This document shows positions 36,050 through 56,623 of a stretch of 64,000 nt of DNA, piece by piece. The position numbers and the translations under genes were made by a program. Each line of letters opens with the position of its first letter. Position 1 is the first letter of the stretch. The stretch spans positions 5,100-69,099 of the forward strand of contig MNXM01000153.1 of NCBI GenBank assembly GCA_001872605.1. The letters run 5' to 3'. The notes under the pieces were generated by a model. It was not told the origin of the DNA, searched no databases, and saw nothing but the letters and a program-made list of their open reading frames with translations. The DNA comes from Armatimonadetes bacterium CG2_30_59_28. Lineage in GTDB: Bacteria; Armatimonadota; Abditibacteriia; CG2-30-59-28.

Positions 36050-38380
36050 CTACAAGCGTGTCTCCTTCAGCCGCAGTGCGTTGGAGATGACGGAAACCGA
36101 GCTGAATGTCATCGCCGCCGCGGCGATCATCGGGCTCAGAAGCAGCCCTGATAAAGGATAGAGCACTCCGGCCGCAATGGGAATACCGAGACCATTATAC
36201 AGCAACGCGAAGAACAGGTTCTGCCGAATGTTCCGCATGGTGGCTTTGCTCAGCCGGCGCGCCCGAACAATCCCCCGCAAGTCGCCCTTGACGAGCGTCA
36301 CGCTTGCGCTCTCCACGGCCACATCGGTGCCGCTCCCCATCGCGATACCCACGTGTGCCTGGGCCAGGGCGGGAGCGTCATTGATACCGTCACCGGCCAT
36401 GGCCACGGTGTGCCCGTCGGACTGAAGTCGTTTGATAATACTGCCCTTGTCCTCCGGCAGAACCCCCGCCTCCACTTCGTCAATCCCCAATTGGCTGGCA
36501 ACCGCCTGCGCAGTGGCCAAGTTATCGCCAGTCACCATGATCAGCCTGATACCGTCGGCGCGCAGATCACGAATTGCTTCAAGCGTTGTCTCTTTGATGG
36601 GATCGGAGACGCCGAAAACTCCGGCAAGTTGTCCGTCCACAGCAACGAACATCACGGTCTGCGCCTGCGCTCGCAGTTCGGCGCTTTTCCGTGCTCCAAG
36701 TTCAGTGTCCACGGCGAATTCGTTCATCAATGCTTGGTTCCCGATCGCGACCTCTCGACCGTCCACCTTGCCGGTAACCCCCTTGCCGGTGGTCGAGGCA
36801 AATTCTTCCGCAGGAGTCACTGGGACGCCTCGATCGTGCGCTCCTGCGACCATCGAGGCCGCGAGGGGATGCTCGCTGTTTTGTTCGAGGCTTGCGGCAA
36901 CACGGAGCAGCTCCGATTCGTCCATACTGCCGCAAGTGTAGATTGAGGTGAGTCTCGGTCTGCCTTCCGTCAGAGTGCCCGTCTTATCGGCGACCAGAGT
37001 GTCAACCCGTTCCATCACTTCGAGAGCTTCTGCGTTTCGGATGAGCACTCCCACGCTCGCGCCGCGTCCGGTTCCCACCATGATGGACATCGGGGTCGCC
37101 AACCCCAGCGCGCACGGACAGGCGATGATGAGCACAGCTACCGCATTGACCAGCGCGTAGGCCAACCGAGGTTCGGGACCGAAGATACTCCAGAGAAGAA
37201 AAGTGGCGGCGGCAACACCCACCACGATGGGCACGAAGTAGCCTGCAACCACATCGGCGACGTGTTGAATGGGGGCGCGGCTGCGCTGCGCCTCGTTGAC
37301 CATCTTCACGATGCGCGCGAGCAGCGTGTCACTGCCGACACGTTCCGCCTGCATGATAAAGCTGCCGGTTCCGTTCACCGTCCCGCCCGTCACCTTGTCT
37401 CCGGCTGCCTTTCCAACGGGCAGTGGCTCTCCCGTAATCATCGACTCATCCACCGGACTCCTGCCGTCAACCACGCTCCCATCGACGGGCACTTTCTCTC
37501 CGGGGCGCACGCGGAGCCGGTCACCAACCTGCACCTCTTCCAGTGGCACATCCACTTCGGCCCCCGCTTGGGCGACGCGGCGCGCGGTGCTGGGCGCCAG
37601 TCCCAGCAGAGCCTTGATGGCGCTGCTGGTCCGGCTGCGGGCCCGCAACTCAAGTATCTGCCCGAGCAATACCAGAGTGACGATCACCGCGGCGGCCTCA
37701 AAGTAGACAGCGACCTGACCTCCGTGACCGCGGAAGGACGCGGGGAAGATGTCCGGCGCCAGCGTCGCGATGGTACTGTAGACATACGCCGTTCCGGTCC
37801 CGATCCCGATGAGGGTGAACATATTCAGGTTTCGCGTCTGAATGGATCTCCATGCCCGCTGAAAGAATGGGAATCCTCCCCACAGCACCACCGGGGTCAC
37901 GAGAAGCAACTGAATCCAGTTCTTCGCTGTGTGGGACAACACTCTCCCCACCGGATCTCCGGGAATCATCGCGGCCATCGCCAGTGCAAACACCGGCACG
38001 GTGAAGACAATGGAGACCCGGAAGCGGCGCGTCATGTCCTCGAGTTCCGGGTTCGCCTCCTCAAGCACCACGGCCTGTGGCTCCAGCGCCATGCCGCACT
38101 TGGGGCATGTGCCCGGCCCCACTTGACTGACCCCCGGACACATCGGGCAGATGTAAGTTGCACCTTCGGACGTTTGCTGCGTCTTCTTCTCTTGTGGGAG
38201 GTATTCCTGCGGGTTTTGATTGAATTTCTCCAGGCAATGTCTGCTGCAGAAGTAGTATGGAGTCCCCTGGTAATCAAAAGAGCCGGCCGCCGACTCCGGC
38301 TCAACCTTCATCCCGCAGACTGGGTCTATTCGGCCGCCATTGGTCTCTCCGCCCTTGTGATGACAACAACATTCCTCCAT
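36050..38380 (-). CDS. copA: Cu(I)-translocating P1B-1 ATPase with YHS and HMBD N-terminal domains
   Basis: DPVCGM...YYFCS..C (YHS), YICPMC...[42 protein letters not shown] and MTFSS. Confidence 0.95.
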
Positions 38381-38395
38381 TGTTAATCACCTCCT

Positions 38396-39274
38396 TCAAG
38401 TTGTACCGGTAGCGATTCGGCGCGCCCCCGCGTACTTTTGCACGTAGTATGGATCATCCAGATTGCCAATGGTTACGCGACCGCGGCCGCTGGAAGCGTG
38501 GAGGAACTCGTTGCCTCCAACATAGAGACCTACGTGAGAAATGCCCGGTTTGTAAGTATTCGTGAAGAAGACAAGGTCCCCTGGTTGCAGGGCGCCATCG
38601 ACCTGTTGTCCCAATTTGAACAACTCCGCTGCAGAGTGAGGCGCGACGATACCATGCCGCCGCAACGTTGCGAGAATCAAGCCGGAACAGTCCATCCCGC
38701 TGAAGCTTGCCCCGCCCCAAAGATACGGGACCCCCAGGAACTCGCGAGCGGTCTCCAAGAACGGATGCAACTTTGCTTTGGCGCCATGCGCTCGTCTCAA
38801 TTCCGTCTCCATCTCATGCAGACGGTTTGCGAGGTTCTGCAAGTTGTCCTCAGCGGAGACCACCTGCTCGCCCAATTTTCGCAGTTGATTTTCACTCTCC
38901 AGCAATTGCACCTGCCATTGCCTCAACTGCTCGTGAGATTCGCTCGTCGAGGTCGTCGGCATCAACGCCAACGGCTGCAAAGGCGCACGCGCCGCAACGG
39001 ACTTTGACGATTGAAGGTCCGCATCGGGTGTCGGGGTGCTCTCTCGCCGCGCGGCTTCCAGTCGTTTGGCCGACGCTTCCAGCTCTCCCCGCGAGATTGC
39101 TCCCTCGGCGAACAAACGCTCATCGAGGGCATACTCCTCCAAAGCTTTGTCGAGAGCGATTTTGGCAGAAACCGACAGAGTTGCAGGTTCGAGTTGCGCC
39201 TCGGTCCTTCCAGGACTGGTTGGGGCGACGAACACGGCGGCAATGGAGAGTAAAAGAATCGGGCGAGACGTCAC
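38396..39274 (-). CDS. Secreted coiled-coil + NlpC/P60 peptidoglycan endopeptidase
   Basis: Signal peptide, coiled coil, LGVPYLWGG, DCSG, PGDLVFF, SHVGLY, FLHAS; GTGA overlap with the TolC gene. Confidence 0.88.
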   Translation of the reverse strand: MTSRPILLLSIAAVFVAPTSPGRTEAQLEPATLSVSAKIALDKALEEYALDERLFAEGAISRGELEASAKRLEAARRESTPTPDADLQSSKSVAARAPLQPLALMPTTSTSESHEQLRQWQVQLLESENQLRKLGEQVVSAEDNLQNLANRLHEMETELRRAHGAKAKLHPFLETAREFLGVPYLWGGASFSGMDCSGLILATLRRHGIVAPHSAAELFKLGQQVDGALQPGDLVFFTNTYKPGISHVGLYVGGNEFLHASSGRGRVTIGNLDDPYYVQKYAGARRIATGTT

Positions 39275-40614
39275 TGCCTCTCCCCTCTGACCGGCGCGCC
39301 GACCGCCCGTTCCAGCATGTCAATCGCGACGTTCTGCTCAAACAGCGCCTGGACGAGGTTGGTCCTCGCCCGGGTCAAGGCAGACAGAGCATCCAGCGGC
39401 TCGAGGTTGATGCCTTTGCCTGACGAATAGCGCAGTTGCGCCAGTCGGTAATCTTCCTCGGCAGCCTTAACGGCGGCTTGCGCGGTGGTGATATTCTGCG
39501 TTGCGGCGGTGAGTTGCAGCAGCGAAGTATGCACCTGCTTCGTCACGATCAACTTGATTTGCTCCCCGTCCTGCCTAACCTTCTGCACGTCGGCTTTCGC
39601 TTCGGCAACCTGCGCCTTGCGCGATCCGCCGTCCAGCAATGGCAGACTGGCTATCACACCCACCGTTACACCGGCATCGTTTCCCGCTCCGCGCTGGGAT
39701 CGCCAGTCGGTTACCGCGGCGAAGTCGACCTGGGGCTTGAACGCGCTGTGAGCGACTTTGACCTCGGCCCCTGCAGCTTCGAGCCGTTTGGAGACGGCCT
39801 GTAACTCGGGCCGTGATTCCAGGGCGAGTTGTTGCACCGTGTCGCCTTCCGGGTTCAAGTTCTCTAACGCCAATTGTTCGGACGGTACAAAATCGGACTT
39901 CTGGTCGACACCCATCACGGTCTTCAGGTCTACCCGCGCGATGTTGAGGTCCCGCCGCGCGTCGGTCAACTTCTGTTGTGCGTCTGCCAGGTCGGCTTCG
40001 TTCCGCAAAACATTGACCAACGGCACTTTTCCCGCGTCGTACATCGCCCGATCGATTCTTAATCGCTCCTGGTCGGCGTCAACAAGGGCTTGGAAGATGT
40101 CCACAACCGCGCGGGTCCACAACACACGACGATAGGCGACCCGTGTGTCCAACTGAATGTCCTGGCGCACGGTCTCCTCGTCGGCCTGTATGGACTCATA
40201 CAGAGACCGGGCAGACGTGACACGGCTTTTCAGCCGTCCGCCGGTGTAGAGCGGAAAGAGAGCCGTCAGATTTTGGTTGAACGACGCGCTGGGCCCTATC
40301 ATTTCCATGTCACTCGGCATCACGGAAGACGGCCCGGACAGCATGTTGACACCATCACCCGCGGTGACGTGGCTGGTTGCCGAGCCAATCAGGCGCGTGT
40401 CGGCCACGGCTCGGCGCAACCGCGCGCGCGCGCCCTCAACCTCAGCACTCTGGCCTTTTACCATCGGACTTTCCCGAAGGGCCGTTGTGACGGCCTCGTT
40501 CAGCGACAGCGGCCCCGACAGGACAAAGCGTTCTCCCGGACTTTGCCCCCAACTTACAGCGGTCCAGCCCAGAAGAGCGAGACCTCCCCATAGACAGATT
40601 TGCATTCTTTGCAC
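39271..40614 (-). CDS. TolC family outer-membrane channel
   Basis: Signal peptide, LSLNEAVTTAL, PLYTGG, SRPELQA, PLLDGG, YSSGKG, duplicated helical halves. Confidence 0.88.
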   Translation of the reverse strand: MQRMQICLWGGLALLGWTAVSWGQSPGERFVLSGPLSLNEAVTTALRESPMVKGQSAEVEGARARLRRAVADTRLIGSATSHVTAGDGVNMLSGPSSVMPSDMEMIGPSASFNQNLTALFPLYTGGRLKSRVTSARSLYESIQADEETVRQDIQLDTRVAYRRVLWTRAVVDIFQALVDADQERLRIDRAMYDAGKVPLVNVLRNEADLADAQQKLTDARRDLNIARVDLKTVMGVDQKSDFVPSEQLALENLNPEGDTVQQLALESRPELQAVSKRLEAAGAEVKVAHSAFKPQVDFAAVTDWRSQRGAGNDAGVTVGVIASLPLLDGGSRKAQVAEAKADVQKVRQDGEQIKLIVTKQVHTSLLQLTAATQNITTAQAAVKAAEEDYRLAQLRYSSGKGINLEPLDALSALTRARTNLVQALFEQNVAIDMLERAVGAPVRGERQ

Positions 40615-40620
40615 TTCCTT

Positions 40621-41277
40621 TCATGATGATTCAACGGTGTTCGCAGGTTGGCTGCGACTTCCCTGCAATGGAGTTTGCGGTCGCAAAGCCCGCTGCCGAA
40701 GCTCTTCGGCCCGCTTGCGTTGTGAGGGAGTCAGGATTTGCATCGCGCGCTCCCAATACTCCAGTTTCAGATTCCCATACTCTCTCGAAAACTGAGACAC
40801 CGGTTCGGCCCGGCGCTGAAGCTCTACGAGATTCCCCTTGCCGGACTTGGCCTCCTCCTCGGCAAACTCACGGAACTTTGTGGCTTCATTGTCGAGTTCT
40901 CGTTTCAGAGGACCGGAGAAACGTCTCCAATCTTCCGTCAAAGCTCGCAGCTTGGACTGCTGTTGTGGGGTCAGGTTGAGAGCGCCTGCGCCCTCCAGCA
41001 AAACACCCATCTCAGGCGCGAAGCGAGTGGGCGCGGGACCTCCGGGGATCACGCGGCTCTGAACGACCGGAGGCGGCTGCGGCTTCATTGTCTCCTGCCA
41101 ACGAGAGTACACCACGTAGGCAGAGACCATCAGGGCGACAGCAATCCCCGGCCCGAAGTTGAGCCGGCGGTACCTGCTATTGTTGGTAGACTGCCCAACC
41201 ACCGTGGAGTCTGGGGAATGTTGCTGATTGCGCGATCTCTTGTTCAAGCTTTTTTCTCGATTTCTGTTGGTTGACAA
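40621..41277 (-). CDS. Membrane-anchored Spy/CpxP-like periplasmic helical protein
   Basis: TM anchor, then LNLTPQQQSKL ... ILTPSQRK (LTxxQ motifs); start uncertain. Confidence 0.55.
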   Translation of the reverse strand: MSTNRNREKSLNKRSRNQQHSPDSTVVGQSTNNSRYRRLNFGPGIAVALMVSAYVVYSRWQETMKPQPPPVVQSRVIPGGPAPTRFAPEMGVLLEGAGALNLTPQQQSKLRALTEDWRRFSGPLKRELDNEATKFREFAEEEAKSGKGNLVELQRRAEPVSQFSREYGNLKLEYWERAMQILTPSQRKRAEELRQRALRPQTPLQGSRSQPANTVESS

Positions 41278-41785: not shown

Positions 41786-44700
41786 TCACTCCTTCCCCTC
41801 CTGCTCCGCCAACTGCGCTGTCAGATCCTGGTCTGTTTCGGTGACCGGCCATTCCCAGTCGCGGTTGAGGAATGCCTTGTTGAGCCACTTAATGAAGTCG
41901 TCCACGTACGTGTGCATAATTGGGATATCGAAGAGACTCAGAATCGTTCCAATGATCAGTCCCCCGATGACGACGACCCCGACGGACGAATAGGCATCCA
42001 TTCCGGTCTTGGGGAAGAAGGCAACGGGTATCATCACGATAATGGTGATGATCGAGGTCATCACAATGGGGCGCATCCTTTGCGGGCAAGCCTCAGTCAC
42101 GGCCTGGTCGCGCGGGACACCGCGGTCCCGATAGCGCATGATCATATCGATCAGCAGGATGGCTGTCGTGATGTCCATGCCGGTCAATACAATGACCGCC
42201 ATGATCGACACCGTGGAAAATGCCTGGTGTGTCAGCCATAGAGCCACGAACACACCTGCCATCTCCAGAGGCAGGGAAAAGCCCATTTGCAGCGGTTGCA
42301 GGAACCCACGGAACTGGGCTACCAGAACGAGCAGCATGAATATGATCGCCAGCACCAGTCCGGTGAGGAGGCGCCGGAACGAGTCCATCATCTGCGTCAT
42401 GTCGCCGCGAACTTCCAGACCGTAGCCTGGGGGCCAGTTCAGTTCCGCCATGGACTTCATCTCTATCTCCATCGCGAGGTCCATCGAGGGGGGGCCATTG
42501 CGACGATAGTATCCGAGGATCGTGTTGACCCGTCGGATACCGTCGTGTTCGATGACCGTCGGTGCGCGTCGCGGCTCAAGATCTGCGACGCTTTTGAGCG
42601 GGACCTGCCTTCCACCGTCGCCGGTGATGTACAATTCCTCCAGATTCTTCGAGGTGGCTCGGCTATCGGGTTTATACCGGACCTGGATGACATTCTGGCG
42701 AATGTTGGGGATCCGATAGAATTCGTTCGTAAACCCGCCGCGCAGAGAGTAGTAGGCTTGCTCGGCGATTTCGTTCACGGTCAATCCCAACTCCTGTGCG
42801 CGGCTGGGATTCACTTTGACTTCCCAGTCCGGCAGCCCCATGGTCCAACTGGTAGCAACCTGGTGCATGCCGTAGGTATGCTCCGCAATCTCTGCGACTT
42901 GCTTTCCCATTTGATCGAGGGTATTGAGGTCAGGGCCGTAGACAATCAACGCGATGGGCGCCTGCGAAGAGGCCATGACATCCGACCCCATTTCCTTGAT
43001 CTGGAAGCGGCGGATTCCCGGGATGGTGTCCATCGCCTCTCTCTGTACGCCGTCTATTACCTTCCACATGTCGCGCGTCCGTTCGCTCCGGTCGGACAGC
43101 GTCAACATAAATGTGGCGGAATTCACGAGCGGCATTGCATAGCCGGTAAAGTAGGTTCCCGTGCTTTCCAGCATGTTCTCAAAGCCCATCTCGATGGAGG
43201 CTTTCTCAACCTCAGGATGTCTCAAGATTATGCGCTCAACCTGCTCCACCGCGCGCTCGGTCTGTTCGAAAGACGTGCCTGGCTGCATTTCCAGTATCCC
43301 ATAGGCTTGCCCTACATCCGCCAACGGCATCATCTCGCTGCCGATGAAGTAGTAGAAGCCGAATCCCACGATGACCGTTGCCAGGATGCGCGCCATGTTG
43401 GAAAAGCGATGTTTCAGCATCCAGGCGATGATTTTGGAATAACCCGTCTCAAGTCGGTTCAAGAAATGCTGGAAGGGCATCAACGCATAGTTGTAAAGAT
43501 ATGCGTAAGGTCTAAACCGCAGGTCCTTTTCGCGTTCATCTTCGTGCCGCAACAGATTGGCGCACAACAGAGCGGTCAGGGTGAAGGAGACCAGCATCGA
43601 GGCCATCAGACCGAAGATGAGCGGCCAGACCAGCTCGCGAAACATCAACTCCACAATACCGCCGCAGAAGAGCATTGGGGCAAGCGCCAGAACGATCATG
43701 AAAGTTGAGGCTATGACGGCCAGTCGCACCTCCGCAATGCCGTCGATGGTGGCTTCCTTTGGGCTCTTGCCCATCCGCAGGTGGCGTTCCACCGAGTGGA
43801 CATCAATGATGGTGTCATCCACCAGACGGCCAATGGACAAGAGAAGACCGATCAGCGTCCCGCTGTTGAGCGTCATCCCAGCCGCGTGAAGACACAGAAT
43901 GGCGATCGCCAGAGACATGGGAATGGTAATCAGGGAAATCAGGGTTCCCCGCCACTCCCCCAGGAAGAAGAAGACCACGATGCCGCACAGGAGGATCGCT
44001 ATCGCCAACTCATGCATCATGTTCTCAAACAGGATGTCCACAAAGTGGGCGTTGCTGTAGGACTCCTCGAATTTGACTCCCGGGTTATTGCTTTCTATCT
44101 GGCGCAGAACCTTGTTGACGCCCTGGATCGTCTTCCAGGAACTCGCCCAGGGGTTCTGGAGCACAGCGACCTCGATGGAAGGGATGACTTCCCCCATCGT
44201 CCCCGGCTCGTGTTTGAGAAAATGATAAGCGCTGCGTCGCTCCCAGTGGGTGTCGAGCACCCGGGCGACGTCTTTCACATAGACAATCCGCGGGCTTTGT
44301 GCCGGTCCCAGTAAAGTGGTTTGTGGTTGGGGGTTGGGGGTTGACGAGGACGCCTGTGAACTTCCTCCCATCGTCCCCATGCCGCTTCCACCGGCGCCGC
44401 CAGCGCCGCGCTGGGTGCGGCCGGTGGAAGGATTGACGGCGGCAACGGGATAGTTGAGCACCATGTCTGCGCTGATCGCGCGCGTGTCGAAGCGGACAAT
44501 AGCCTCGTTGTCTCCAGATGTCAGAGTTCCCCCAGGGCGGCTCACGTTGTATCGGTCGATGGCGTTGCGCACGTCCAGGATGGAAAGCCCGTAGGCTGCG
44601 GCTTTCTCCCGATCAACAACCACCTGCAACTGCCGGCGATATCCGCCGAACGGAACAACCGAGTAGACGTCCGGCACGACCTTGAGCCGGTTCACGACCT

Positions 44701-45241
44701 CGTTATCAGCGAATTCACGTAACCCGACCTTGTCCCAGCCCTTTCCTGTAAGGCTTAGAGTGACAATCGGGATATTAAGAGGATCAATGGGAAGCACCCA
44801 GGAAGGTTTCAGGTTGGCGCCGGTCGCGGGCAGGTTTGCCTGTACCACATTCATCAGAGCTTGAACGTCGAAGAGGGCCTTCTTCATGTCAACGCCATAC
44901 CAGAATTCCAGACTGACAATGGAGAACCCATCCTGTGACGTGGAGCGGATATAGTGGAGGTTCTGGATGTTGACCATCTGCTCTTCGATGGGTTTGCTGA
45001 TGTACAGCTCCATCTCCTCGGCAGACAGACCGGGCATCATCGACACGACGCCGATCATGGGGCTTTCGACATAGGGCATGAACCGGCGCGGCATGAACTT
45101 AAGAGCCAGAACTGATAGCACCACCATGGCGAAGTAGAAGGCGATGATTACATACGGGTGCTCAATCGACCACTTATGGATCAGATGCAGCGGGTTGACG
45201 CCGCGACTTTCCCAGCGAGGTTTGTGAACAGAATCAGCCAT
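41786..45241 (-). CDS. RND efflux permease (AcrB/CusA superfamily), Met-rich, atypical TM4/TM10
   Basis: GLSAEEME...IE, VVPFGGYRRQLQVVVD, IGRLVDD, RMRPIVMTS, VVIGGLIIGTILSL. Confidence 0.93.
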   Translation of the reverse strand: MADSVHKPRWESRGVNPLHLIHKWSIEHPYVIIAFYFAMVVLSVLALKFMPRRFMPYVESPMIGVVSMMPGLSAEEMELYISKPIEEQMVNIQNLHYIRSTSQDGFSIVSLEFWYGVDMKKALFDVQALMNVVQANLPATGANLKPSWVLPIDPLNIPIVTLSLTGKGWDKVGLREFADNEVVNRLKVVPDVYSVVPFGGYRRQLQVVVDREKAAAYGLSILDVRNAIDRYNVSRPGGTLTSGDNEAIVRFDTRAISADMVLNYPVAAVNPSTGRTQRGAGGAGGSGMGTMGGSSQASSSTPNPQPQTTLLGPAQSPRIVYVKDVARVLDTHWERRSAYHFLKHEPGTMGEVIPSIEVAVLQNPWASSWKTIQGVNKVLRQIESNNPGVKFEESYSNAHFVDILFENMMHELAIAILLCGIVVFFFLGEWRGTLISLITIPMSLAIAILCLHAAGMTLNSGTLIGLLLSIGRLVDDTIIDVHSVERHLRMGKSPKEATIDGIAEVRLAVIASTFMIVLALAPMLFCGGIVELMFRELVWPLIFGLMASMLVSFTLTALLCANLLRHEDEREKDLRFRPYAYLYNYALMPFQHFLNRLETGYSKIIAWMLKHRFSNMARILATVIVGFGFYYFIGSEMMPLADVGQAYGILEMQPGTSFEQTERAVEQVERIILRHPEVEKASIEMGFENMLESTGTYFTGYAMPLVNSATFMLTLSDRSERTRDMWKVIDGVQREAMDTIPGIRRFQIKEMGSDVMASSQAPIALIVYGPDLNTLDQMGKQVAEIAEHTYGMHQVATSWTMGLPDWEVKVNPSRAQELGLTVNEIAEQAYYSLRGGFTNEFYRIPNIRQNVIQVRYKPDSRATSKNLEELYITGDGGRQVPLKSVADLEPRRAPTVIEHDGIRRVNTILGYYRRNGPPSMDLAMEIEMKSMAELNWPPGYGLEVRGDMTQMMDSFRRLLTGLVLAIIFMLLVLVAQFRGFLQPLQMGFSLPLEMAGVFVALWLTHQAFSTVSIMAVIVLTGMDITTAILLIDMIMRYRDRGVPRDQAVTEACPQRMRPIVMTSIITIIVMIPVAFFPKTGMDAYSSVGVVVIGGLIIGTILSLFDIPIMHTYVDDFIKWLNKAFLNRDWEWPVTETDQDLTAQLAEQEGKE

Positions 45242-45375: not shown

Positions 45376-45978
45376 TCAGCAGCCTCCACCTCGCGAACCG
45401 CAGCAGGAGCCGCCCCCGCTGTGGTCGTGACCCTGAGTCCCGGCCTTCCCTTCCTGCCGGGAAGTCGCCCCGACAGTCTCCGGCACGACCTGGTAACCGC
45501 CAGACTCCAGTGCGGCGATCAACTGGGTCAGCGTCGCGTTCCCCTGGGGACCGAATTGCACGAGGACCGTTCCTTCCTTCTCCTGCACTCGGGCGCTTTT
45601 GACCCCGGGGGTGGCTTCCAGGGCCTTTACCGCACTCTCCGACGAGGATTCGCTTGAGTTGGGCTTGATCTTCAAGACCAAAGACAGGACGTAGGGTTCC
45701 CCGTGCGCATTACGGGCCTTGCCGGCTGCGATCGACATGAACTGGACGTCCGTCTTTTCGGGAGCAAATTGGACAACGGTTCTTTTCTGTTTGAGATCAG
45801 TCGAGACCGCCGCAACGCCGGTAACTTTCTTCAGACCGGATTCCAGGTTCGGCACGCACGCGGCGCATCGGAAACCCTCCACCTCGTATGTCGCCTGCTG
45901 CGGCTTGGATAAAGCAGACAACACAGCGGTACACATTCCTGTAACTAACACTCCCATCAATGCTAACCTGATATTCAT
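45376..45978 (-). CDS. Secreted tandem HMA-domain metal chaperone
   Basis: Signal peptide; first domain YEVEGFRCAACV...LKKVTGV; second HMA-like fold lacks CxxC; His/Cys tail HDHSGGGSCCGSRGGGC. Confidence 0.8.
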   Translation of the reverse strand: MNIRLALMGVLVTGMCTAVLSALSKPQQATYEVEGFRCAACVPNLESGLKKVTGVAAVSTDLKQKRTVVQFAPEKTDVQFMSIAAGKARNAHGEPYVLSLVLKIKPNSSESSSESAVKALEATPGVKSARVQEKEGTVLVQFGPQGNATLTQLIAALESGGYQVVPETVGATSRQEGKAGTQGHDHSGGGSCCGSRGGGC

Positions 45979-46043: not shown

Positions 46044-48788
46044 TTAACCCGTCTTTTCCAGCTTCATGCCGCACTTCGGACAATCCCCTGGCTTGTCTGA
46101 CTTCACTTCCGGGTGCATCGGACAGGTATACATCGCTTCGGCTTCAACACCTCCTTTACTTACCGGCTCCAAACGCATCCCGCACTTGGGACAGTCGCCC
46201 GGTTTGTTCGACTTGACCTCCGCGTGCATCGGGCAGGTGTAAGTCACCTTGGATTTCACTTCCACCCGGACCTTGGGCTTGGGAGGCGCACCGTAGGACT
46301 TGTGCGATACAACGGTCGGCTCAAGGCGCATGCCGCATTTTGGGCAGTCGCCCGGCTTGTTCGATTTGATCTCCGGGTGCATCGGGCAACTGTAGACTTT
46401 CCCGGGAGCGGTTCTTGACCCCTGAGCGGGTGACTTCATCGCGTGGTCTCCATGGCCGGTTCCCGCTGGCTCTTCCACCGGGGTGACTTGAGGCGGCGCT
46501 TCTTCCGAGGGTTTCAGCGTTGCGGGACCCTCTTTCCCCCATGCTGTCGGGAACACGGAATCCCCTTCCTTCAGCTTCTCGTGCCCGGCCCAGATGACCG
46601 AGTCGCCTTCGTTGAGCCCCGACAGGACGACCGTCCGCTTGCCATCGGTGGGCCCCAGCGTCACCATCACTCGATGCGCCCGGAACTGGCCGCCCTTGGT
46701 CATCGGCTCCAGCTTCATGCTACACTTTGGGCATTTGCCCGGCTTGTCCCGCACAATCTCCGGGTGCATGGTGCAGTAGTACTGCATCTTGCCGGTCTCC
46801 TTGCGCCCGATAGCCACCCAGACTGCCGGCTGCTTTTCGGTATAGAAGACACCGGTCGCTTGTGGTGTAACGTGCATAATTGCCTGGTTGGGAACAGTGA
46901 TAGCCTCCGGAATTCCTCCCGTGGCAATTCTCATCGTGATAAATTCGCCGGGGAGAAAGCGCTTATCCGGGTTGGGTGTGAGCGCCTCAACCACGGCGGT
47001 GCGCGCGGTTGGGTCGACAGCGGGGAAGACCGACGTAACCTTTGCGACAATGGGTCTATCGGGGTGTTTTGCGCTGGTCACCATTATACGGTTACCCACC
47101 TGAATGTTGTTAAGGTCCTGCTCCGCGACATTGGCTTGCAGTCGGATGGGATCGATCTCAGCAATTCGCAGGATCGGGGTGCCCGGACTGACAAGGACCC
47201 CGGGGCTGACGAGCCGCTGAATGACGACGCCCGGCCGAGTCGCGCGGATTTCGGTGTAGCCTCGCACGGTGGTGGCGGCGGTGAAGCCTGCCGCAGTTTG
47301 TCCCACCATGGCCGACATCTGCGCCACCTTCGACGATGCGCCCTTCACCTCTGACTCGGCGGAGCGAACCATCGACTTCGTCGCAGTGATGCCCGCCCGC
47401 GCCTGATCGACTTTTGCCTGGGTAGCAGAGACTACGGCGCGGTTCTGCTCGATACGAGCCTTCACGCGATCTACCTCCGCCTCGGCTGTTGCGATCATTG
47501 TTCGGGTCACATCCACATTGGCCCGATAGTGATGCACGTGAGAGTCCGCGGTTTTGATCATCGCCTGCGCCTTGCGAACCCTTGCCTGAACCTGGTCCAC
47601 TTTGGCCCTGGCGCTGTCGTGCTGAGCCTTTTCCCGCTGAAACTCCTCCGCCGAAATGGCGCCCTGCTTAACCAATTGCTGTTCCCTCTTAAGTTCTTCG
47701 ACCCAGTAGGCATAGTCCGCCTGTGCGGCTACGAGGTCGGCCTGGGCGTCGCCTAAATCCGCGCGGGCCGCCTCTGACTCCGCCTCCATCGCGTCAGACT
47801 CGTGCTCCATCGCCACGAGTTCTTGACGACTCGCGAGCAGCTTCTTTTCGGCGACAGTCAGTTCCTTCTGCGACTCAACCACCATTGCTCTCGCGCTCTC
47901 GACGTCCCGCTGGGCCTCCGATAACATCGCCTGACTTCGGTTGACCTCCGCTTCAGCCTGAGACCGCGCGGCACTGGCTTTTCCTACCTGAGCGGAGGCT
48001 TCACGCTGGCCGTGGGCGGCAGCTTCGCGACTGTACGCAGCCTCCCGTTCCCGCGCTCCCAGCTCCACGCTGTCCAGGCGCGCGATCAGTTGTCCGGGCT
48101 GCACGCGGTCGCCGGGATAGACCGGCAGCGACACGATCTTGCCGACGACGCGTGGATAGATATCCTCATCGTTCTTTGCGACAACCTGTCCGGTATAGGT
48201 GACCGCTGCCTCGAAATCACGACGCGCAATCTTCTCGATGGCGACCGGCGCCGCACCGACAGGAGGTTTCATCGCACTCATATCCATCGCCTGCGCCTCA
48301 ATCACCGTCATGGAGCCTGGCTTGCGGTACTTCTTGACGACGTGACGTACACCGATCAGAATGACCACCAAAGTCAACGTCCCGACCACAAATTGCCGGT
48401 TGAGCAGTTTCCGGGGAGACAGCTTCATCCCTCTCCGGGCGGACATGACAACCCCCAGGAGAACAAGTACGCCTATTCCGAGAAACAAGAAGAGCCGGGA
48501 TCGCGGGTTTGCTTGCTTCATCCCCGGCATCGCCCTATCTCCTCCGGCGTTCTGCTCCTGCTTGCCCATGTCACTCATGCCTTCGTGGCTGTCCATGTCG
48601 CTGCCCGACTGAGCGTGCACGGGAGCCAGCCACACCGTCCCGCCGGGGTGCGGAGCCCACGCTGTCAGGAGCGTCAGGCACAGACTCATCAGAGCAACCG
48701 TTATCCTGTCGGATTGACGCGCCGCCTCAAGGAATCTCTCACCTCCGCGGAGAGACTTGGTCGTTTTCTTACATTGATGCTTCAACAT
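46044..48788 (-). CDS. RND periplasmic adaptor (MFP) with very long hairpin and four HMBD repeats
   Basis: IYPRVVGKIVSLPVYPGDRVQPGQLIARLD, IRATRPGVV, VDPTART, four YxCxMH-x-CPKCxMxL repeats; RBS AGGGAGG before ATG 48788. Confidence 0.9.
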   Translation of the reverse strand: MLKHQCKKTTKSLRGGERFLEAARQSDRITVALMSLCLTLLTAWAPHPGGTVWLAPVHAQSGSDMDSHEGMSDMGKQEQNAGGDRAMPGMKQANPRSRLFLFLGIGVLVLLGVVMSARRGMKLSPRKLLNRQFVVGTLTLVVILIGVRHVVKKYRKPGSMTVIEAQAMDMSAMKPPVGAAPVAIEKIARRDFEAAVTYTGQVVAKNDEDIYPRVVGKIVSLPVYPGDRVQPGQLIARLDSVELGAREREAAYSREAAAHGQREASAQVGKASAARSQAEAEVNRSQAMLSEAQRDVESARAMVVESQKELTVAEKKLLASRQELVAMEHESDAMEAESEAARADLGDAQADLVAAQADYAYWVEELKREQQLVKQGAISAEEFQREKAQHDSARAKVDQVQARVRKAQAMIKTADSHVHHYRANVDVTRTMIATAEAEVDRVKARIEQNRAVVSATQAKVDQARAGITATKSMVRSAESEVKGASSKVAQMSAMVGQTAAGFTAATTVRGYTEIRATRPGVVIQRLVSPGVLVSPGTPILRIAEIDPIRLQANVAEQDLNNIQVGNRIMVTSAKHPDRPIVAKVTSVFPAVDPTARTAVVEALTPNPDKRFLPGEFITMRIATGGIPEAITVPNQAIMHVTPQATGVFYTEKQPAVWVAIGRKETGKMQYYCTMHPEIVRDKPGKCPKCSMKLEPMTKGGQFRAHRVMVTLGPTDGKRTVVLSGLNEGDSVIWAGHEKLKEGDSVFPTAWGKEGPATLKPSEEAPPQVTPVEEPAGTGHGDHAMKSPAQGSRTAPGKVYSCPMHPEIKSNKPGDCPKCGMRLEPTVVSHKSYGAPPKPKVRVEVKSKVTYTCPMHAEVKSNKPGDCPKCGMRLEPVSKGGVEAEAMYTCPMHPEVKSDKPGDCPKCGMKLEKTG

Positions 48789-48904
48789 CGTTCTTTCCTC
48801 CCTGCGTACAATCAAAGGGCAGTGGGTTGAGTCTACTCCTCATGCAGGTGCAATGAGAAAAGAGCACTCGATCCGAGAGGAGAGGTGTCCCCTCCCCAGC
48901 ACTG

Positions 48905-49330
48905 CTAATGGTCCTCGTCGTGTCCATGGCCCTCGTGGGCATGGCCAATCTTAGCTTCCAAGAACATCCCGCATTCCGAGCATTTTCCTGGTTTGTCCCG
49001 TTTCACTTCAGGATGCATGGGGCAGATGTAAGTGACCTTGGTTCCTTCCGGCGCTTTTGCCTGGAGGAACATTCCGCACTTTGGGCATTTCCCCGGCTTG
49101 TCCTGCTGGACGTCGGGATGCATCGGACACGTGTACGTGATATTCGCGGCGTCCGTGCCACTTTCACTGCCGGATTCCGGCGTCGCTGCCGGCGCTTCCG
49201 GCGGAGTCGCCATCGGAGGGGGAGCCACTCCCCCTTCTGACGACAAGTTGCTGCTGTTCTTGCTGCACCCCCACAGGGCGAAAGCTGCGATTCCGAGCAG
49301 CAGTCCCAGGATTGTTACGCGTTTCAACAT
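48905..49330 (-). CDS. Lipoprotein with two HMBD repeats and His-rich tail
   Basis: Lipobox LWGC; YTCPMHP...CPKCGMFL, YICPMHP...CSECGMFL; HAHEGHGHDEDH. Confidence 0.88.
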   Translation of the reverse strand: MLKRVTILGLLLGIAAFALWGCSKNSSNLSSEGGVAPPPMATPPEAPAATPESGSESGTDAANITYTCPMHPDVQQDKPGKCPKCGMFLQAKAPEGTKVTYICPMHPEVKRDKPGKCSECGMFLEAKIGHAHEGHGHDEDH

Positions 49331-49588: not shown

Positions 49589-50242
49589 TCAGTGAGTATG
49601 TCGATGGCCACCTCCTTCATCGCCCTCGTGATGGTCGGGAGAGGGAGTGGCGGTTTGGTGATGTTCCTCCGCCTCGGCAGGCATTTCAGTTTCCGCAGGG
49701 GTTTGCATGTTCTCGTGGTGACCGCCGGGAGACGCGCCACCGTGGTGATGAAACACTTCTTCAGCAGGCGCCACGAGGGGCACGGCGATTCTAACGGCCG
49801 CCCCCTCAACGAACACCATGCGGCTCCCAATATCCGCCGTTTGCAGGATCAGCAGCACGGTGACGGCCAACACGGCCACGAACGCCCACATACCTTTGGG
49901 TTGCGACTGACTCTGCCAAAAGCTCCAGAGGGTGAGGGCCCCCGCAAGCCCGAGGGTCATCCATCCTACTGCCTTGTGCGTTTGCATCATGGCATGTATC
50001 GTCGCATTGTGAGGGAAGGACTCCTGCGCCCCCAGACCAGTCAGAAAAGCAAGCAAAACGCCCGCAGTGCCCAGATAAAGGCACGTTCTGCCAGCGCCCG
50101 AGAAGAACGGTTTCTTCAGAACCGCTCCGAGAAAGTATAGCAACAGTGCGCTGGGGAACAGCGCGATAGGGAAATGAACGAACATGGGGTGGACATTGTA
50201 GACCTCCCGAATTCCCTGAAAACCCAAGTGACTGAAATTCAT
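49589..50242 (-). CDS. DUF2231-like membrane protein with His-rich C-terminal tail
   Basis: NVHPMFVHFPIAL, LTGL, THK, TADIGSRMVF; 4 TM; HHH-rich tail. Confidence 0.82.
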   Translation of the reverse strand: MNFSHLGFQGIREVYNVHPMFVHFPIALFPSALLLYFLGAVLKKPFFSGAGRTCLYLGTAGVLLAFLTGLGAQESFPHNATIHAMMQTHKAVGWMTLGLAGALTLWSFWQSQSQPKGMWAFVAVLAVTVLLILQTADIGSRMVFVEGAAVRIAVPLVAPAEEVFHHHGGASPGGHHENMQTPAETEMPAEAEEHHQTATPSPDHHEGDEGGGHRHTH

Positions 50243-50421
50243 GGCGTCGCTCCTTCGTTCTCAATGCATCATACGGGGGATTCGAATTGCCAGACCATCC
50301 CCTCAGGGACATATCCTGAAGGAAAGCTGCGTGGGCCGCCGCCTGCGGTATGCGCACGAAGTGCGGTGGGATAGTGTCTATTTATCGTTCATCCCCTGCG
50401 CAAATCGTTGCAGGTTCTGGA

Positions 50422-50862
50422 TTAGACGGTTTGAGGAGGGGCGCGAAGGCGCCTGGGTTGTTTAGTGTTGGATTGCAGGAGTAAATTGGGATGTTGAGCA
50501 AGTGCGAGCGCGGGCCCTATTTGGGGGACGATGAGAATGGGCCCGGGGACGTGTGCGCCGACGCTATCGTTCGTCCGTTCACATACGCGCTTCTCGGGAA
50601 GGGGATAGCACTCGTCGAGAGGGGCCCGGGGGGAAGCCTTCAGGGCGCAACCGCAATCTTTCCCTGGGGAGGCGGCGGAGTCGCAACAGCAAGAGCCACC
50701 GGATCCCGAACTCGGGCAACGCACTGAGACGGCGCGTAATTGCCCATTTTCCCTTGGGCAGCAGAGGCGCATCGGCGCAATTACTGCCACCGATGCCACC
50801 CACACCAGCAGCAGAAGCAACGCCGTTTGCGCCCTGATTCTACAATTGCCTTGCAGGTTCAT
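50422..50862 (-). CDS. Cys-rich exported leader protein ending in RAPP (DUF2946/CutF/CruR-like arrest peptide candidate)
   Basis: Hydrophobic signal-like segment, 11 Cys (CC, CCC, CGC), C-terminus RRLRAPPQTV*; GGAG RBS; first ORF after the promoter. Confidence 0.72.
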   Translation of the reverse strand: MNLQGNCRIRAQTALLLLLVWVASVAVIAPMRLCCPRENGQLRAVSVRCPSSGSGGSCCCDSAASPGKDCGCALKASPRAPLDECYPLPEKRVCERTNDSVGAHVPGPILIVPQIGPALALAQHPNLLLQSNTKQPRRLRAPPQTV

Positions 50863-50893
50863 TCTGTTTTCTCTCCGAGTGACTTCCGACCAT

Positions 50894-50922
50894 AGTATGC
50901 GCTATGAATGCTCAACTGTCAA
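50894..50922 (-). promoter_or_regulatory. Sigma-70 promoter of the metal island (TTGACA-N17-CATACT)
   Basis: TGTCAA at 50917-50922, AGTATG at 50894-50899; alternative -10 TACTAT at 19-nt spacing. Confidence 0.7.
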
Positions 50923-50938
50923 GCGCCACAAAACATCC

Positions 50939-51225
50939 GGGTGCAAGTCAGATTTGTGAGAATCCACCCCAGCCGGAACCATAGGCGCCTATAATTTCGA
51001 AACCGACAGTGATTGTGTAACGGAGTTCGCGGTTTGTCGGTCCTGAGTGAGTTCATGCAACAACCCCCATCCTCGAACCCTTTGGGTTCGCGAACCCTTT
51101 GGGTTCGAGGATGGGGGTTGTTACTGTCCCCTTTCACTCGCGTAAGTCTTTCCAACCTCTCGTTTACGCCTGCCCGGCCCCAGGGAGCTGATTGCCACCA
51201 CGCATCACAAATCTTACTTACACCC
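50939..51225 (-). mobile_element. MITE family A, copy 2 (complete, 287 bp)
   Basis: TIRs GGGTGCAAGTCAGATTTGTGA / TCACAAATCTTACTTACACCC; flanks AAAACATCC/GAAACATCC; central nested palindrome. Confidence 0.92.
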
Positions 51226-51234
51226 GAAACATCC

Positions 51235-51315
51235 GGGTGCAAGTCAGACTGGTGGCAGCCGACATTCCCGTAAGGGCGTTTCGCGGTGGGCGCGTCGGCC
51301 TGCCCGGCCAGGGAG
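51235..51315. mobile_element. Older diverged family A-related MITE remnant abutting copy 2
   Basis: Starts GGGTGCAAGTCAGA right after the duplicated target; contains CCTGCCCGGCCAGGGAG similar to the family A internal motif. Confidence 0.6.
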
Positions 51316-54894: not shown

Positions 54895-54973
54895 CGCCCG
54901 CAAGCCTCCCGTTTTTTTCTCAAGTTCATGGAGTTGCTTGTTCGTTACACTCTCCGGTGGGAAACTCGGCTGT

Positions 54974-55190
54974 TTAGAGTAGTTGCCTGAACCGGTCGAT
55001 GGTTAGACCGGCAGGCATCCTGCACTATCCCAGCCATGGTGAGAGCGTCCACCGGGTTGGCTCGAGGGATCGTAATAATGCGGTCCCCATCGGTCATGAC
55101 GATATGCTTGCCTTGCCTGGCAATCCAAAATCCAGCTTTCTGGAAAGCGCCCACGGCGCAGAGGTGATTGACTCCTGGCAGCTTGGGCAC
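54974..55190 (-). pseudogene. hicA: HicA toxin frameshifted by a 4-bp duplication
   Basis: MPKLPGVNH...AGFWIARQGKHIVM...TIPRANPVDALTMAGIVQDA; TGCC duplicated (55010-55017); removal restores AGLTIDRFRQLL*. Confidence 0.8.
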
Positions 55191-55193
55191 TGC

Positions 55194-55379
55194 TCACACC
55201 GCGACTTCCACATAACGGAATTCTTGGTTCTCCGCCAACTCCTCGACGACCTCGAGATATTCAGCAATGGCCGCACGCATGTTCTCCAAGGCTTCATCTT
55301 CGGTATTCTCCTGAGACCAGCAACCGGGAAGCCCGGGACATCGCACAGCATATCCCTCGTCCGTATTGAAGATGTTCAC
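55194..55379 (-). CDS. hicB: HicB-like antitoxin (N-terminal domain only, start degraded)
   Basis: VNIFNTDEGYAVRCPGLPGCWSQENTEDEALENMRAAIAEYL; only a GTG start, overlapping the upstream stop. Confidence 0.65.
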   Translation of the reverse strand: MNIFNTDEGYAVRCPGLPGCWSQENTEDEALENMRAAIAEYLEVVEELAENQEFRYVEVAV

Positions 55380-56623
55380 CTGTCCATCAACCTCCTCACG
55401 ATCCTGCACGCTTCTGCGACGCGGTCTTTCATGGAACCGTTGAGGGGGTTGGTGTCGCGAAAGATCAGTTCCACGAAATTATCCTTGGCGATGTCGAGTG
55501 TCTCCCGGATATGCGCCTCGAATGCGGCGGCGTCGAAAGTTGGACTGCAGAGCTTCAGCGGGTGAGGTTTGCGGGAGAGCACGACGTTCCTGCCGACGGA
55601 CGCGGCGATGGACTCCTGATCGCACCACGGCGACACGGTCACTTTGCGGAGGTTTTGGAACTGCTTCAACACCGGCCACTGAGCGTGGACTGGCTCGCAG
55701 CACCCGTAGTAGACCAGTCCGTACCGGTCGGCGGTGCGTCGCTGGTAGGGGTGGATGAACTCGCCGTACTGCTCCGCGGAAAGCCCAACCGATTCCTGCG
55801 CCTCGTGGAATCCCCAGCAATCTTCGGGAGAGAAACGATCACCCCCGACGACTGACCGTCGGGGCAGCTCATCGGTGTAACCGCAACTGCCGGACCCGAC
55901 ATAGAATTCGCCGTGGTTGGGTGTGATGAGCTTCTCGGCTTCCAGCCAGTTAAGGAACTCAATTGATTCCGTGGCGATGAAATCGAAGAATTGGTGGACG
56001 TTCTCCGGCTGCTCGATCATCGCCACATAGAAGTTGTCCATGCCCATCCATGTCACGGCCTTGTGGGCGAGGCCGGTTCCTGCACTGAGCGTGTGGGGAC
56101 CGATGATTTTCACCGGCAGGAGATCGCCAAACGCTTTCTCCGCCATTTCGACCCGTCGGTAGGTTTCCTCGCGGTTCACCGAAAACTCGTCACGCCGCAA
56201 TTGCTTCAGCCCATTCGCCAAGTCGGCCAATGGTTCGTTGGTTGCGTAGCCGAGAGGCCGCCCGGTGGAGTCGGGCACTTTTTTGATTTTGAGGTCGGGG
56301 CACATGCTCGGACGCGAAACCTGCCAACTCACGCCGCAGTATGGTGGGAACACCCGGTCGTCATCGATGAGCCGGTGGTTGGTGATGGCGTGCAGCAATT
56401 CCAGTTCCATGTCGCGTTCCACCTCGCCCTCGCACCGAGTAGGAGGTGTCAGGTCCGCAAAAAACGACCCGTTGTCCTCGATCTGAAACGGCACGGTTCG
56501 TTCTTGCAGGCGGTTGCTCAGCCGCCAGATTTCACGCCGGGCGTTCATGGTGTCGCTGTTGACAATCGCGGCATACTCCGCGGCGAGAGAGCGGAGACGG
56601 TTGCGGTCTTGGTATGAGGTCAT
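55376..56623 (-). CDS. Uroporphyrinogen decarboxylase-like (URO-D/MtaA-like TIM barrel) protein
   Basis: WMGMDNFYVAM..QPE.VH, QESVGLS..QYGEF, YYGCCEP, SVSP-like VTVSPW, LSRKP. Confidence 0.65.
   Translation of the reverse strand: MTSYQDRNRLRSLAAEYAAIVNSDTMNARREIWRLSNRLQERTVPFQIEDNGSFFADLTPPTRCEGEVERDMELELLHAITNHRLIDDDRVFPPYCGVSWQVSRPSMCPDLKIKKVPDSTGRPLGYATNEPLADLANGLKQLRRDEFSVNREETYRRVEMAEKAFGDLLPVKIIGPHTLSAGTGLAHKAVTWMGMDNFYVAMIEQPENVHQFFDFIATESIEFLNWLEAEKLITPNHGEFYVGSGSCGYTDELPRRSVVGGDRFSPEDCWGFHEAQESVGLSAEQYGEFIHPYQRRTADRYGLVYYGCCEPVHAQWPVLKQFQNLRKVTVSPWCDQESIAASVGRNVVLSRKPHPLKLCSPTFDAAAFEAHIRETLDIAKDNFVELIFRDTNPLNGSMKDRVAEACRIVRRLMDR

Follow-up and report, generated by a model that had tools for sequence, protein, structure and literature searches.

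The stretch of DNA analysed here (the window) comprises 64,000 nucleotides of contig MNXM01000153.1 from Armatimonadetes bacterium CG2_30_59_28 and carries, on its minus strand, an island of copper-efflux genes headed by a small open reading frame (ORF). The ORF encodes a Cys-rich, predicted exported protein that ends in RAPP, a proven arrest motif (PMC10951233; PMC7897499). It probably acts in cis as a regulatory leader that senses metal through its nascent peptide, most likely an unannotated variant of the sensors CruR (Bp2923, Bordetella pertussis) and CutF (Rhodobacter capsulatus) and not a new kind of regulator. This reading draws on (i) the anatomy of the ORF, (ii) its conservation, (iii) its synteny, (iv) a C-rich, G-poor segment (C>G bubble) at its 3′ end, (v) the presence of a Rho gene in the genome, and (vi) the absence of a local regulator gene. 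Translational arrest, export of the chain, the metal ligand, the polarity of the response, and a role for Rho are proposed by comparison with the characterised systems. From the original prediction of a metal-sensing RAPP leader, what stands is a conserved Cys-rich LRAPP leader with a predicted signal, first in an efflux island and with RAPP kept in a syntenic homologue; membership of the DUF2946 family and the claim of a new regulatory context do not.

Anatomy and conservation of the leader

The leader protein (MNLQGNCRIRAQTALLLLLVWVASVAVIAPMRLCC...GGSCCCDSAASPGKDCGC...RRLRAPPQTV-stop) is encoded by 146 codons in the ORF listing of the window (Table 1). Its 11 cysteines (residues 7, 34, 35, 49, 58, 59, 60, 70, 72, 85, and 94) include CC, CCC, and CGC clusters, and RAPP occupies residues 140-143, followed by Q-T-V and the stop codon. 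The N-terminus holds a hydrophobic 15-mer, LLLLLVWVASVAVIA, with a mean Kyte-Doolittle hydropathy of 2.9. The sole element that AlphaFold2 (AF2) predicts with confidence is a helix spanning residues 5-27, while the remainder has predicted local distance difference test (pLDDT) values below 50 and no predicted fold. All elements of the anatomy described earlier (the length, the hydrophobic N-terminus, the 11 Cys in CC/CCC/CGC clusters, and the RRLRAPPQTV end) were re-found, as was the position of the leader as the first ORF behind the island promoter, with a sigma-70-like site directly upstream.

A C-terminal RAPP is by itself not rare in this genome (58% GC): the motif lies within the last 12 residues of 14 of the 31,467 six-frame ORFs of at least 60 amino acids. 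Among these 14, a credible export signal occurs only in the leader ORF. Contig C307 holds one other RAPP-tailed ORF whose N-terminus is hydrophobic, but it runs antisense to a HicB-like gene and was judged spurious for that reason. The leader stands above chance because four divergent homologues all keep LRAPP in the corresponding position.

Together with these homologues, the leader forms a family of five sequences of 140-146 residues with 26-45% identity and 9-11 cysteines per member: the window leader, two paralogues from the sister genus G001 recovered by a six-frame search of related genomes, P0003 from a profile search, and a homologue on metagenome contig L036. The residues left invariant by the five-way alignment are LL.VW in the signal, C35, G55, C58, C60, C70, C72, and L139-R-A-P-P143. 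LRAPP stands 3-5 residues before the stop in all five members, with endings PSLRAPPSSIL-stop and PPLRAPPVPASI-stop in G001, PPLRAPPISIL-stop in P0003, and PRHLRAPPSSLA-stop (LRAPPSSLA-stop) in L036, and the export signal and Cys core are also kept. The spacing from CxC to RAPP is 67, 66, 65, and 65 residues in four members, and the same in the window and L036, across a linker whose sequence is poorly conserved.

L036 is an unrelated 123-kb JGI metagenome contig (3300010938, Ga0137716_10000341), reached through homologues of the DUF2231 protein whose gene follows the leader in the window; its DUF2231 protein is the closest of these, at 58% identity. The L036 leader (ORF 4435-4866, 143 codons) aligns with the window leader at 45% identity with zero gaps (BLASTP E-value 1e-35) and lies 134 nt upstream of a syntenic DUF2231-HMBD-adaptor(HMBD)-HMA-RND operon. 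The conservation of RAPP at the C-terminus of syntenic homologues, which the original prediction had named as a check, is thus observed. In the source annotation, an 826-nt stretch upstream of this operon has no called gene, and the leader ORF lies inside it; being uncalled, the L036 leader is missing from protein databases. Leader-type genes are probably under-counted in protein-based surveys.

Word-indexed and exhaustive phmmer searches of 1.8 billion protein representatives returned only a 99%-identical strain copy (L027), which differs by one base over 851 nt and is therefore uninformative on selection. Searches with the family alignment in genome contigs and metagenome contigs found no new members, a search of the genome contigs with the DUF2231 protein found no related loci, and when 31 genomes of the class and 401 of the phylum were searched with a profile, no members turned up outside the window's own family.

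The G001 paralogues (L009:1492-3536; L010:1-1990; L029) stand in other contexts. One heads the gene of an STN-domain glycine-rich protein, after a weak MerB-like exported protein, and the other lies behind a histidine kinase and an M48 peptidase, ahead of a gene that the contig shows for no more than 27-30 codons. A tblastn search in G000 gave no identity for this gene after the G001/L029 leader. That family members head different genes (an STN-domain protein in one case, this incompletely visible gene in another) fits a portable regulatory module.

The efflux island and its surroundings

The island and the elements that surround the leader are listed in Table 1. Downstream of the leader, the unit encodes membrane, periplasmic, and outer-membrane components of metal export and a CopA-type ATPase.

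Table 1. Features of the leader and the copper-efflux island, ordered along the direction of transcription (window positions)
Feature	Positions	Strand	Basis
Repeat resembling a miniature inverted-repeat transposable element (MITE), 289 bp, 22-nt inverted ends CGGGTGYAAGTMAGATTTGTGA, internal palindrome 51059-51122; adjoins promoter	50938..51226	.	context, not a switch component
Sigma-70-like promoter, TTGACA-17-CATACT (alternative: TTGACA-19-TACTAT)	50894..50922	-	10/12 matches
Short 5′ leader; Shine-Dalgarno-like GGAGAG 8 nt ahead of ATG	50863..50893	-	sequence
Leader ORF, predicted exported Cys-rich protein, 146 aa, tail RRLRAPPQTV-stop	50422..50862	-	ORF listing; homologue alignment
Codons 13-30, hydrophobic export signal or signal anchor; LL.VW invariant across family	50773..50826	-	hydropathy, AF2, alignment
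Codons 34-72, Cys core (C35, C58, C60, C70, C72 invariant; GGSCCC, CxC), presumed periplasmic thiolate sensor	50647..50763	-	alignment
C>G bubble (C 40-47%, G 10-15%), ORF 3′ end and spacer start, candidate Rho-utilisation region	50400..50560	-	composition
RAPP codons CGC GCC CCT CCT, presumed arrest site (P site: Pro142 codon; A site: Pro143 codon)	50434..50445	-	arrest position by analogy with CruR toeprint, PMC12992588
Intergenic spacer, 179 nt; no Rfam family, intrinsic terminator, or promoter-like site on this strand	50243..50421	-	
AAGGAG, ribosome-binding site of DUF2231 gene	50250..50255	-	sequence
DUF2231 membrane protein, His-rich tail, first gene after leader	49589..50242	-	PF09990, 2e-18
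Predicted exported protein, two HMBD heavy-metal-binding domains	48905..49330	-	Pfam
Membrane-fusion adaptor (HlyD_D23), four HMBD domains	46044..48815	-	Pfam
Protein with two HMA (CopZ/MerP-like) domains	45376..45978	-	domain scans
RND transporter (ACR_tran)	41786..45241	-	Pfam
LTXXQ (CpxP/Spy-like) periplasmic protein	40621..41277	-	Pfam
Outer-membrane efflux protein (OEP/TolC family)	39271..40614	-	Pfam
NlpC/P60 peptidoglycan hydrolase	38396..39274	-	domain scans
CopA-type P1B ATPase, N-terminal YHS and HMBD domains	36050..38380	-	Pfam

Neither a further sigma-70-like site nor an intrinsic terminator was found on the sense strand of the 179-nt spacer, and an Rfam scan gave no riboswitch, only spurious hairpin matches to MITE palindromes. 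A MerR-type promoter with a 19-nt spacer is unsupported, as the 17-nt reading scores 10/12, there is no clear dyad, and the genome has no CueR-like MerR. The repeats beside the -35 hexamer were considered as an operator and rejected because they are the ends of the MITE-like element, which lies 15 nt from that hexamer and has about 150 end copies across the genome. The MITE-like sequence is also noted at 51234-51254. There are, in addition, 52 palindrome arms genome-wide; many of the copies sit at contig ends and probably explain the fragmented assembly. The island is preceded by a PcRGLX-like gene, which in turn has a HicA-like toxin and HicB-like antitoxin pair (54945-55409, minus strand) upstream of it.

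Pfam searches of large and small ORFs found no MerR, CsoR, ArsR, or TetR regulator, sigma factor, or two-component protein in the unit; the earlier statement that the unit has no MerR, CsoR, or two-component gene is thus borne out as far as Pfam detects. Elsewhere in the genome (~90% complete) there are two MerR-family genes, one apparently HspR-like and one fused to DUF433, both of which lack the CueR-type Cys motif and are not CueR-like. DUF2231-RND islands of other lineages carry classical regulators, namely an extracytoplasmic function (ECF) sigma factor with a zf-HC2 anti-sigma factor (L037-L039), TetR (L040), or CsoR (L043), whereas both leader-bearing islands, those of the window and L036, are without them. 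The DUF2231 genes of L037, L038, L039, L040, and L043 (50-57% identity) head or lie inside HMBD-adaptor/RND/OEP metal islands from several phyla, where the regulators also include Rrf2 alongside the ECF sigma and zf-HC2 anti-sigma factors, and CsoR is accompanied by a multicopper oxidase.

Apart from one interrupted copy, 60 related genomes lack an orthologue of the window's DUF2231 gene, and homologues of 50-60% identity are plentiful in other phyla. This distribution, together with the flanking MITEs, suggests that the island was acquired horizontally. Unrelated Cys/His ORFs with a transmembrane segment and predicted export precede DUF2231 in two further loci: that of L042 (2356-2904) has SCC...DCC motifs, ends SASRAPPAVV-stop, and lies 97 nt upstream of DUF2231, and that of L044 (2543-2920) has a DPCC motif, ends FAPHAPPLSLA-stop, and lies 81 nt upstream. 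Cys leaders with xAPP tails, belonging to three unrelated families, thus precede DUF2231 at 4 of the 11 DUF2231 loci inspected, and the L042 and L044 leaders point to a recurrent link between such leaders and DUF2231. The link provides a testable handle on the uncharacterised DUF2231 family. A speculative and rather unlikely extension is that a portable nascent-chain sensor cassette has, inside a single bacterial family, been wired to different outputs (the efflux island, the STN-domain protein, and the G001 gene seen in part), with DUF2231 as its preferred first output across phyla and as a feedback partner that acts on the leader, as in SecM-SecA. If such feedback were true, it would assign the DUF2231 family a role in periplasmic copper or thiol handling.

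Proposed signal transmission and competing explanations

In the proposed mechanism, the N-terminal signal would send the nascent leader to the Sec translocon for co-translational export, and the ribosome would arrest once R140-A141-P142 has been made, the P site then holding P142 and the A site the P143 codon, as RAPP does in ApdA/ApdP and in CruR (PMC10951233; PMC12992588). At arrest, the Cys core (residues 34-72) would be 65-105 residues from the peptidyl-transferase centre, a distance that should put the whole sensor in the periplasm by then. If a thiophilic metal, with Cu(I) or Ag(I) the likeliest candidates, bound the CC/CCC/CxC thiolates, it could keep the chain from folding or forming disulfides; the pull that would otherwise release the chain would be lost and the arrest lengthened. 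Since the output is an export operon, the logic would have to be that of CutF, in which metal prolongs arrest. Arrested and queued ribosomes would cover the C-rich, G-poor end of the ORF and keep Rho off the transcript, and RNA polymerase would cross the 179-nt spacer, allowing expression of DUF2231, the HMBD proteins, the RND pump, the OEP, and CopA. A weaker alternative output is the unmasking of the DUF2231 ribosome-binding site.

The C>G bubble takes in the final ~110 nt of the leader ORF and continues into the start of the spacer. Its C-G peak of +0.33 exceeds every 60-nt window of the 14-kb island (mean -0.03, sd 0.10, maximum 0.28), and all four homologues have a bubble as well, with 42-50% C and 10-17% G over their last 74-90 nt. 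The spacer between leader and DUF2231 gene is 179 nt in the window and 134 nt in L036. In cruR, a rut (Rho-utilisation) site has been mapped, and the RAPP-arrested ribosome keeps Rho off the RNA ahead of a spacer of 162 nt (PMC9426467). Against this background, and with a Rho gene in the genome, the bubble is suggestive of a Rho-based output.

Several observations weigh against the proposed reading or parts of it. The C-richness is partly a by-product of the Pro/Leu/Ser-rich end of the ORF. Masking of the DUF2231 ribosome-binding site by the RAPP codons, acting as an anti-Shine-Dalgarno sequence, is unsupported: ranked among 609 upstream windows the duplex comes 171st, and 30% of shuffles do equally well. 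The minimum-free-energy fold pairs GGCGCCUUCGCGCCCCUC with the AAGGAGCGACGCC region, and the site is mostly paired in the predicted ensembles, but the fold of the whole region is no better than shuffled sequences (z = -0.5), and masking a stalled-ribosome footprint lifts the accessibility of the site only from 0.33 to 0.42. Its pairing partners differ in homologues L010 and L029, and the Pro-Pro codons of L036 are CCG CCA, so the CCUCC anti-Shine-Dalgarno look-alike is not conserved. The RBS-masking model is not relied on because the pairing is at chance level and not conserved, and for the output step, protection from Rho as in CruR appears more likely than melting of a stem-loop. The family itself is tiny, two of its five sequences being close relatives, and three members have no visible link to copper genes. 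The leader has no detectable homology to DUF2946, so the mechanism is transferred by analogy. Lastly, a borderline CsoR-like match occurs in a 300-codon frame on another contig and leaves room for a trans-acting regulator; histidine kinases were not surveyed.

In GC-rich DNA a frame of this length might stay open by chance, a reading for which one could cite the lack of a protein-family match, the uncalled copy in L036, and overlapping ORFs on the opposite strand, but it is effectively refuted by conservation, given that frame, length, motifs, and tail are kept in five homologues and that the match to L036 has a BLASTP E-value of 1e-35. A real protein could nevertheless act in its own right, as a secreted or membrane-anchored Cys-rich metal-binding protein (periplasmic metallothionein- or chaperone-like) in which RAPP slows translation, for instance to aid targeting, without downstream control. 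Its 9-11 cysteines with an invariant core and its HMBD and HMA metal-relay neighbours would suit such a role. This role is rather unlikely, since no fold is predicted, family members head unrelated genes, and the locus bears regulatory hallmarks: RAPP at an invariant position and distance, a long spacer, and a C>G bubble. The precedents point the same way, for the CruR and CutF proteins either escape detection or do not last long (PMC9426467, PMC9973294).

An arrest-peptide leader could report periplasmic thiol-redox (Dsb) status or general Sec export capacity instead of metal ions, in keeping with a sensor composed entirely of cysteine, with three family members that are not beside recognisable copper genes, and with the enrichment of RAPP/RGPP small ORFs upstream of DsbA, thioredoxin, and sec genes (PMC12992588). 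This is improbable in view of the two members, syntenic L036 included, that head dedicated Cu/Ag-type efflux islands, and of the weak MerB-like gene beside one G001 copy, which is another thiophilic-metal context. CCC and CxC suit the binding of Cu(I) by thiolates, and copper blocks disulfide formation, so the redox and metal readings overlap. Alternatively, the island may be mainly under a trans-acting regulator encoded elsewhere (ECF sigma, two-component, or CsoR), with a dispensable leader. The ECF sigma, TetR, or CsoR genes of related DUF2231-RND islands, the borderline CsoR-like match, and a promoter that can be read with a 19-nt spacer would accommodate this scenario, yet it is very unlikely: no such regulator lies in or beside the island of the window or L036, there is no CueR-type MerR, and the leader is present in exactly those islands that have no regulator. 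A metal-sensing cis-acting leader remains the preferred reading.

Relation to known arrest-peptide systems

The original prediction likened the leader to the copper-responsive leaders of DUF2946 (PF11162), but membership of that family does not hold. The PF11162 hidden Markov model gives no match at E<=10 for the window protein, the two G001 homologues, or the L036 leader, a genome-wide PF11162 scan does not pick up the leader locus, and scans of the leader with Pfam and NCBIfam return no match. As a positive control, an ORF of sister-family genome G006 (L017, 1375-1806) scores 24.0 bits against a PF11162 gathering score of 23.7 bits; it has a transmembrane segment and a CFLC motif, followed after 43 residues by RGPPRSS-stop. 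When the leader family is compared with this DUF2946 ORF by hhalign, the alignment is limited to the four RAPP/RGPP residues. The CruR type is defined by a CxxC motif located 45 ± 2 residues from RAPP (PMC9426467). A conserved CxxC is absent from the family, whose clusters are CC, CCC, and CxC, and the distance from Cys motif to RAPP is 65-67 residues; only the non-conserved C94 of the window leader sits 45 residues away. What is shared with the CruR type is the C-terminal RAPP, the predicted N-terminal export signal, the operon-first position, and the long spacer. The CruR/CutF-like architecture thus survives in its predicted signal, Cys motifs, and C-terminal RAPP, and fails in DUF2946 membership, CxxC, and 45-residue spacing. 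In sister-family genome G004, a separate leader (L022:1492-1905, minus strand) ends ARGPPLS-stop, scores 18.8 bits against PF11162, under the cut-off, and lies directly upstream of a DUF1559 prepilin-like gene. The DUF1559 class is enriched after RGPP small ORFs in the supplementary tables of PMC12992588.

Nor is the efflux setting a new regulatory context, as had been claimed, because published surveys already place such leaders before RND efflux genes. In the survey of Ozturk et al. 2023 (PMC9973294), the genes that most often neighbour CutF-like leaders of the Cys type encode OEP, ACR_tran, and HlyD_D23 proteins, and SilD and CusD are named. The supplementary tables of PMC12992588 count 620 small ORFs with RAPP and 148 with AAPP ahead of RND adaptor genes, with further enrichment before TolC and CusA/CzcA genes and signal peptides in nearly all. 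The catalogued RAPP/RGPP small ORFs before RND adaptor, TolC, and CusA/CzcA genes belong to the same class as the leader, combining signal peptide, RAPP, and a heavy-metal efflux operon. DUF2231 does not appear as a downstream class in the accessible part of the supplementary text of PMC12992588, and the leader family was probably missed in that catalogue because its genes are partly uncalled. The statement that characterised cases control an uptake receptor or an oxidase holds for the experimentally characterised ones only; the efflux-linked cases of the catalogues are known from sequence.

What is new is a family, unannotated and very narrowly distributed, in which a CC/CCC/CxC sensor is kept at a long and conserved distance (65-67 residues) from the presumed arrest site, together with a gene overlooked by gene callers and the placement of DUF2231 right behind the leader. 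Confirmation would provide the first case in which control of a whole copper/silver export island (RND pump and CopA) by an arrest peptide has been tested; such contexts abound in the published catalogues, and none has yet been studied at the bench. A further consequence would be that RAPP-mediated arrest can work with a non-CxxC sensor, here a CCC/CxC thiolate cluster 65-67 residues away, a distance that would place it fully in the periplasm. The family has been overlooked systematically, having no Pfam model, no further entry among the 1.8 billion protein representatives, and no call in the syntenic metagenome contig. Metal islands said to be without a regulator may therefore often carry one.

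CruR, whose arrest has been demonstrated by toeprinting (PMC12992588) and whose regulation is RAPP-dependent (PMC12992588, PMC9426467), resembles the leader in length (145 versus 146 residues), in its N-terminal export signal, in having RAPP exactly three residues before the stop, and in its operon-first position. Further likenesses are the long spacer (162 versus 179 nt), a C>G bubble across the 3′ portion of the ORF and on into the spacer, and a poorly structured protein. The two differ in that there is no HMM or profile similarity, the sensor is CC/CCC/CxC and not CxxC, and the spacing is 65-67 and not 45 residues. CruR controls uptake, whereas the output here is efflux, so metal would have to prolong arrest and not relieve it. 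Moreover, regulation by CruR did not need its signal peptide.

ApdA/ApdP (PMC7897499; PMC10951233) share with the leader a RAPP near the C-terminus of a small exported protein encoded upstream of the regulated gene. Unlike the leader, they monitor Sec/YidC components and have no metal-binding motif; the genes downstream of the leader are DUF2231 and metal-efflux genes and not a Sec/YidC pathway gene.

CutF, with a mechanism described in PMC9973294 and bioRxiv 10.1101/2025.02.05.636593, differs in stalling at PPP in an EF-P-dependent manner and in its short spacer, where a stem-loop covers the ribosome-binding site; the leader has RAPP and a 179-nt spacer, and no significant masking helix was found. 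The rule-defined features of CutF-like proteins (PMC9973294), including SilD and CusD of Cupriavidus metallidurans, are otherwise present. These proteins have fewer than 150 residues (146 here), a Sec signal (predicted here), a periplasm-exposed Cys motif (11 Cys here), a proline motif in the last 15 residues (PP at 142-143), and a position upstream of copper-detoxification genes (the efflux island). The expected polarity is also the same as that of CutF, in that metal would prolong the stall and thereby switch the operon on.

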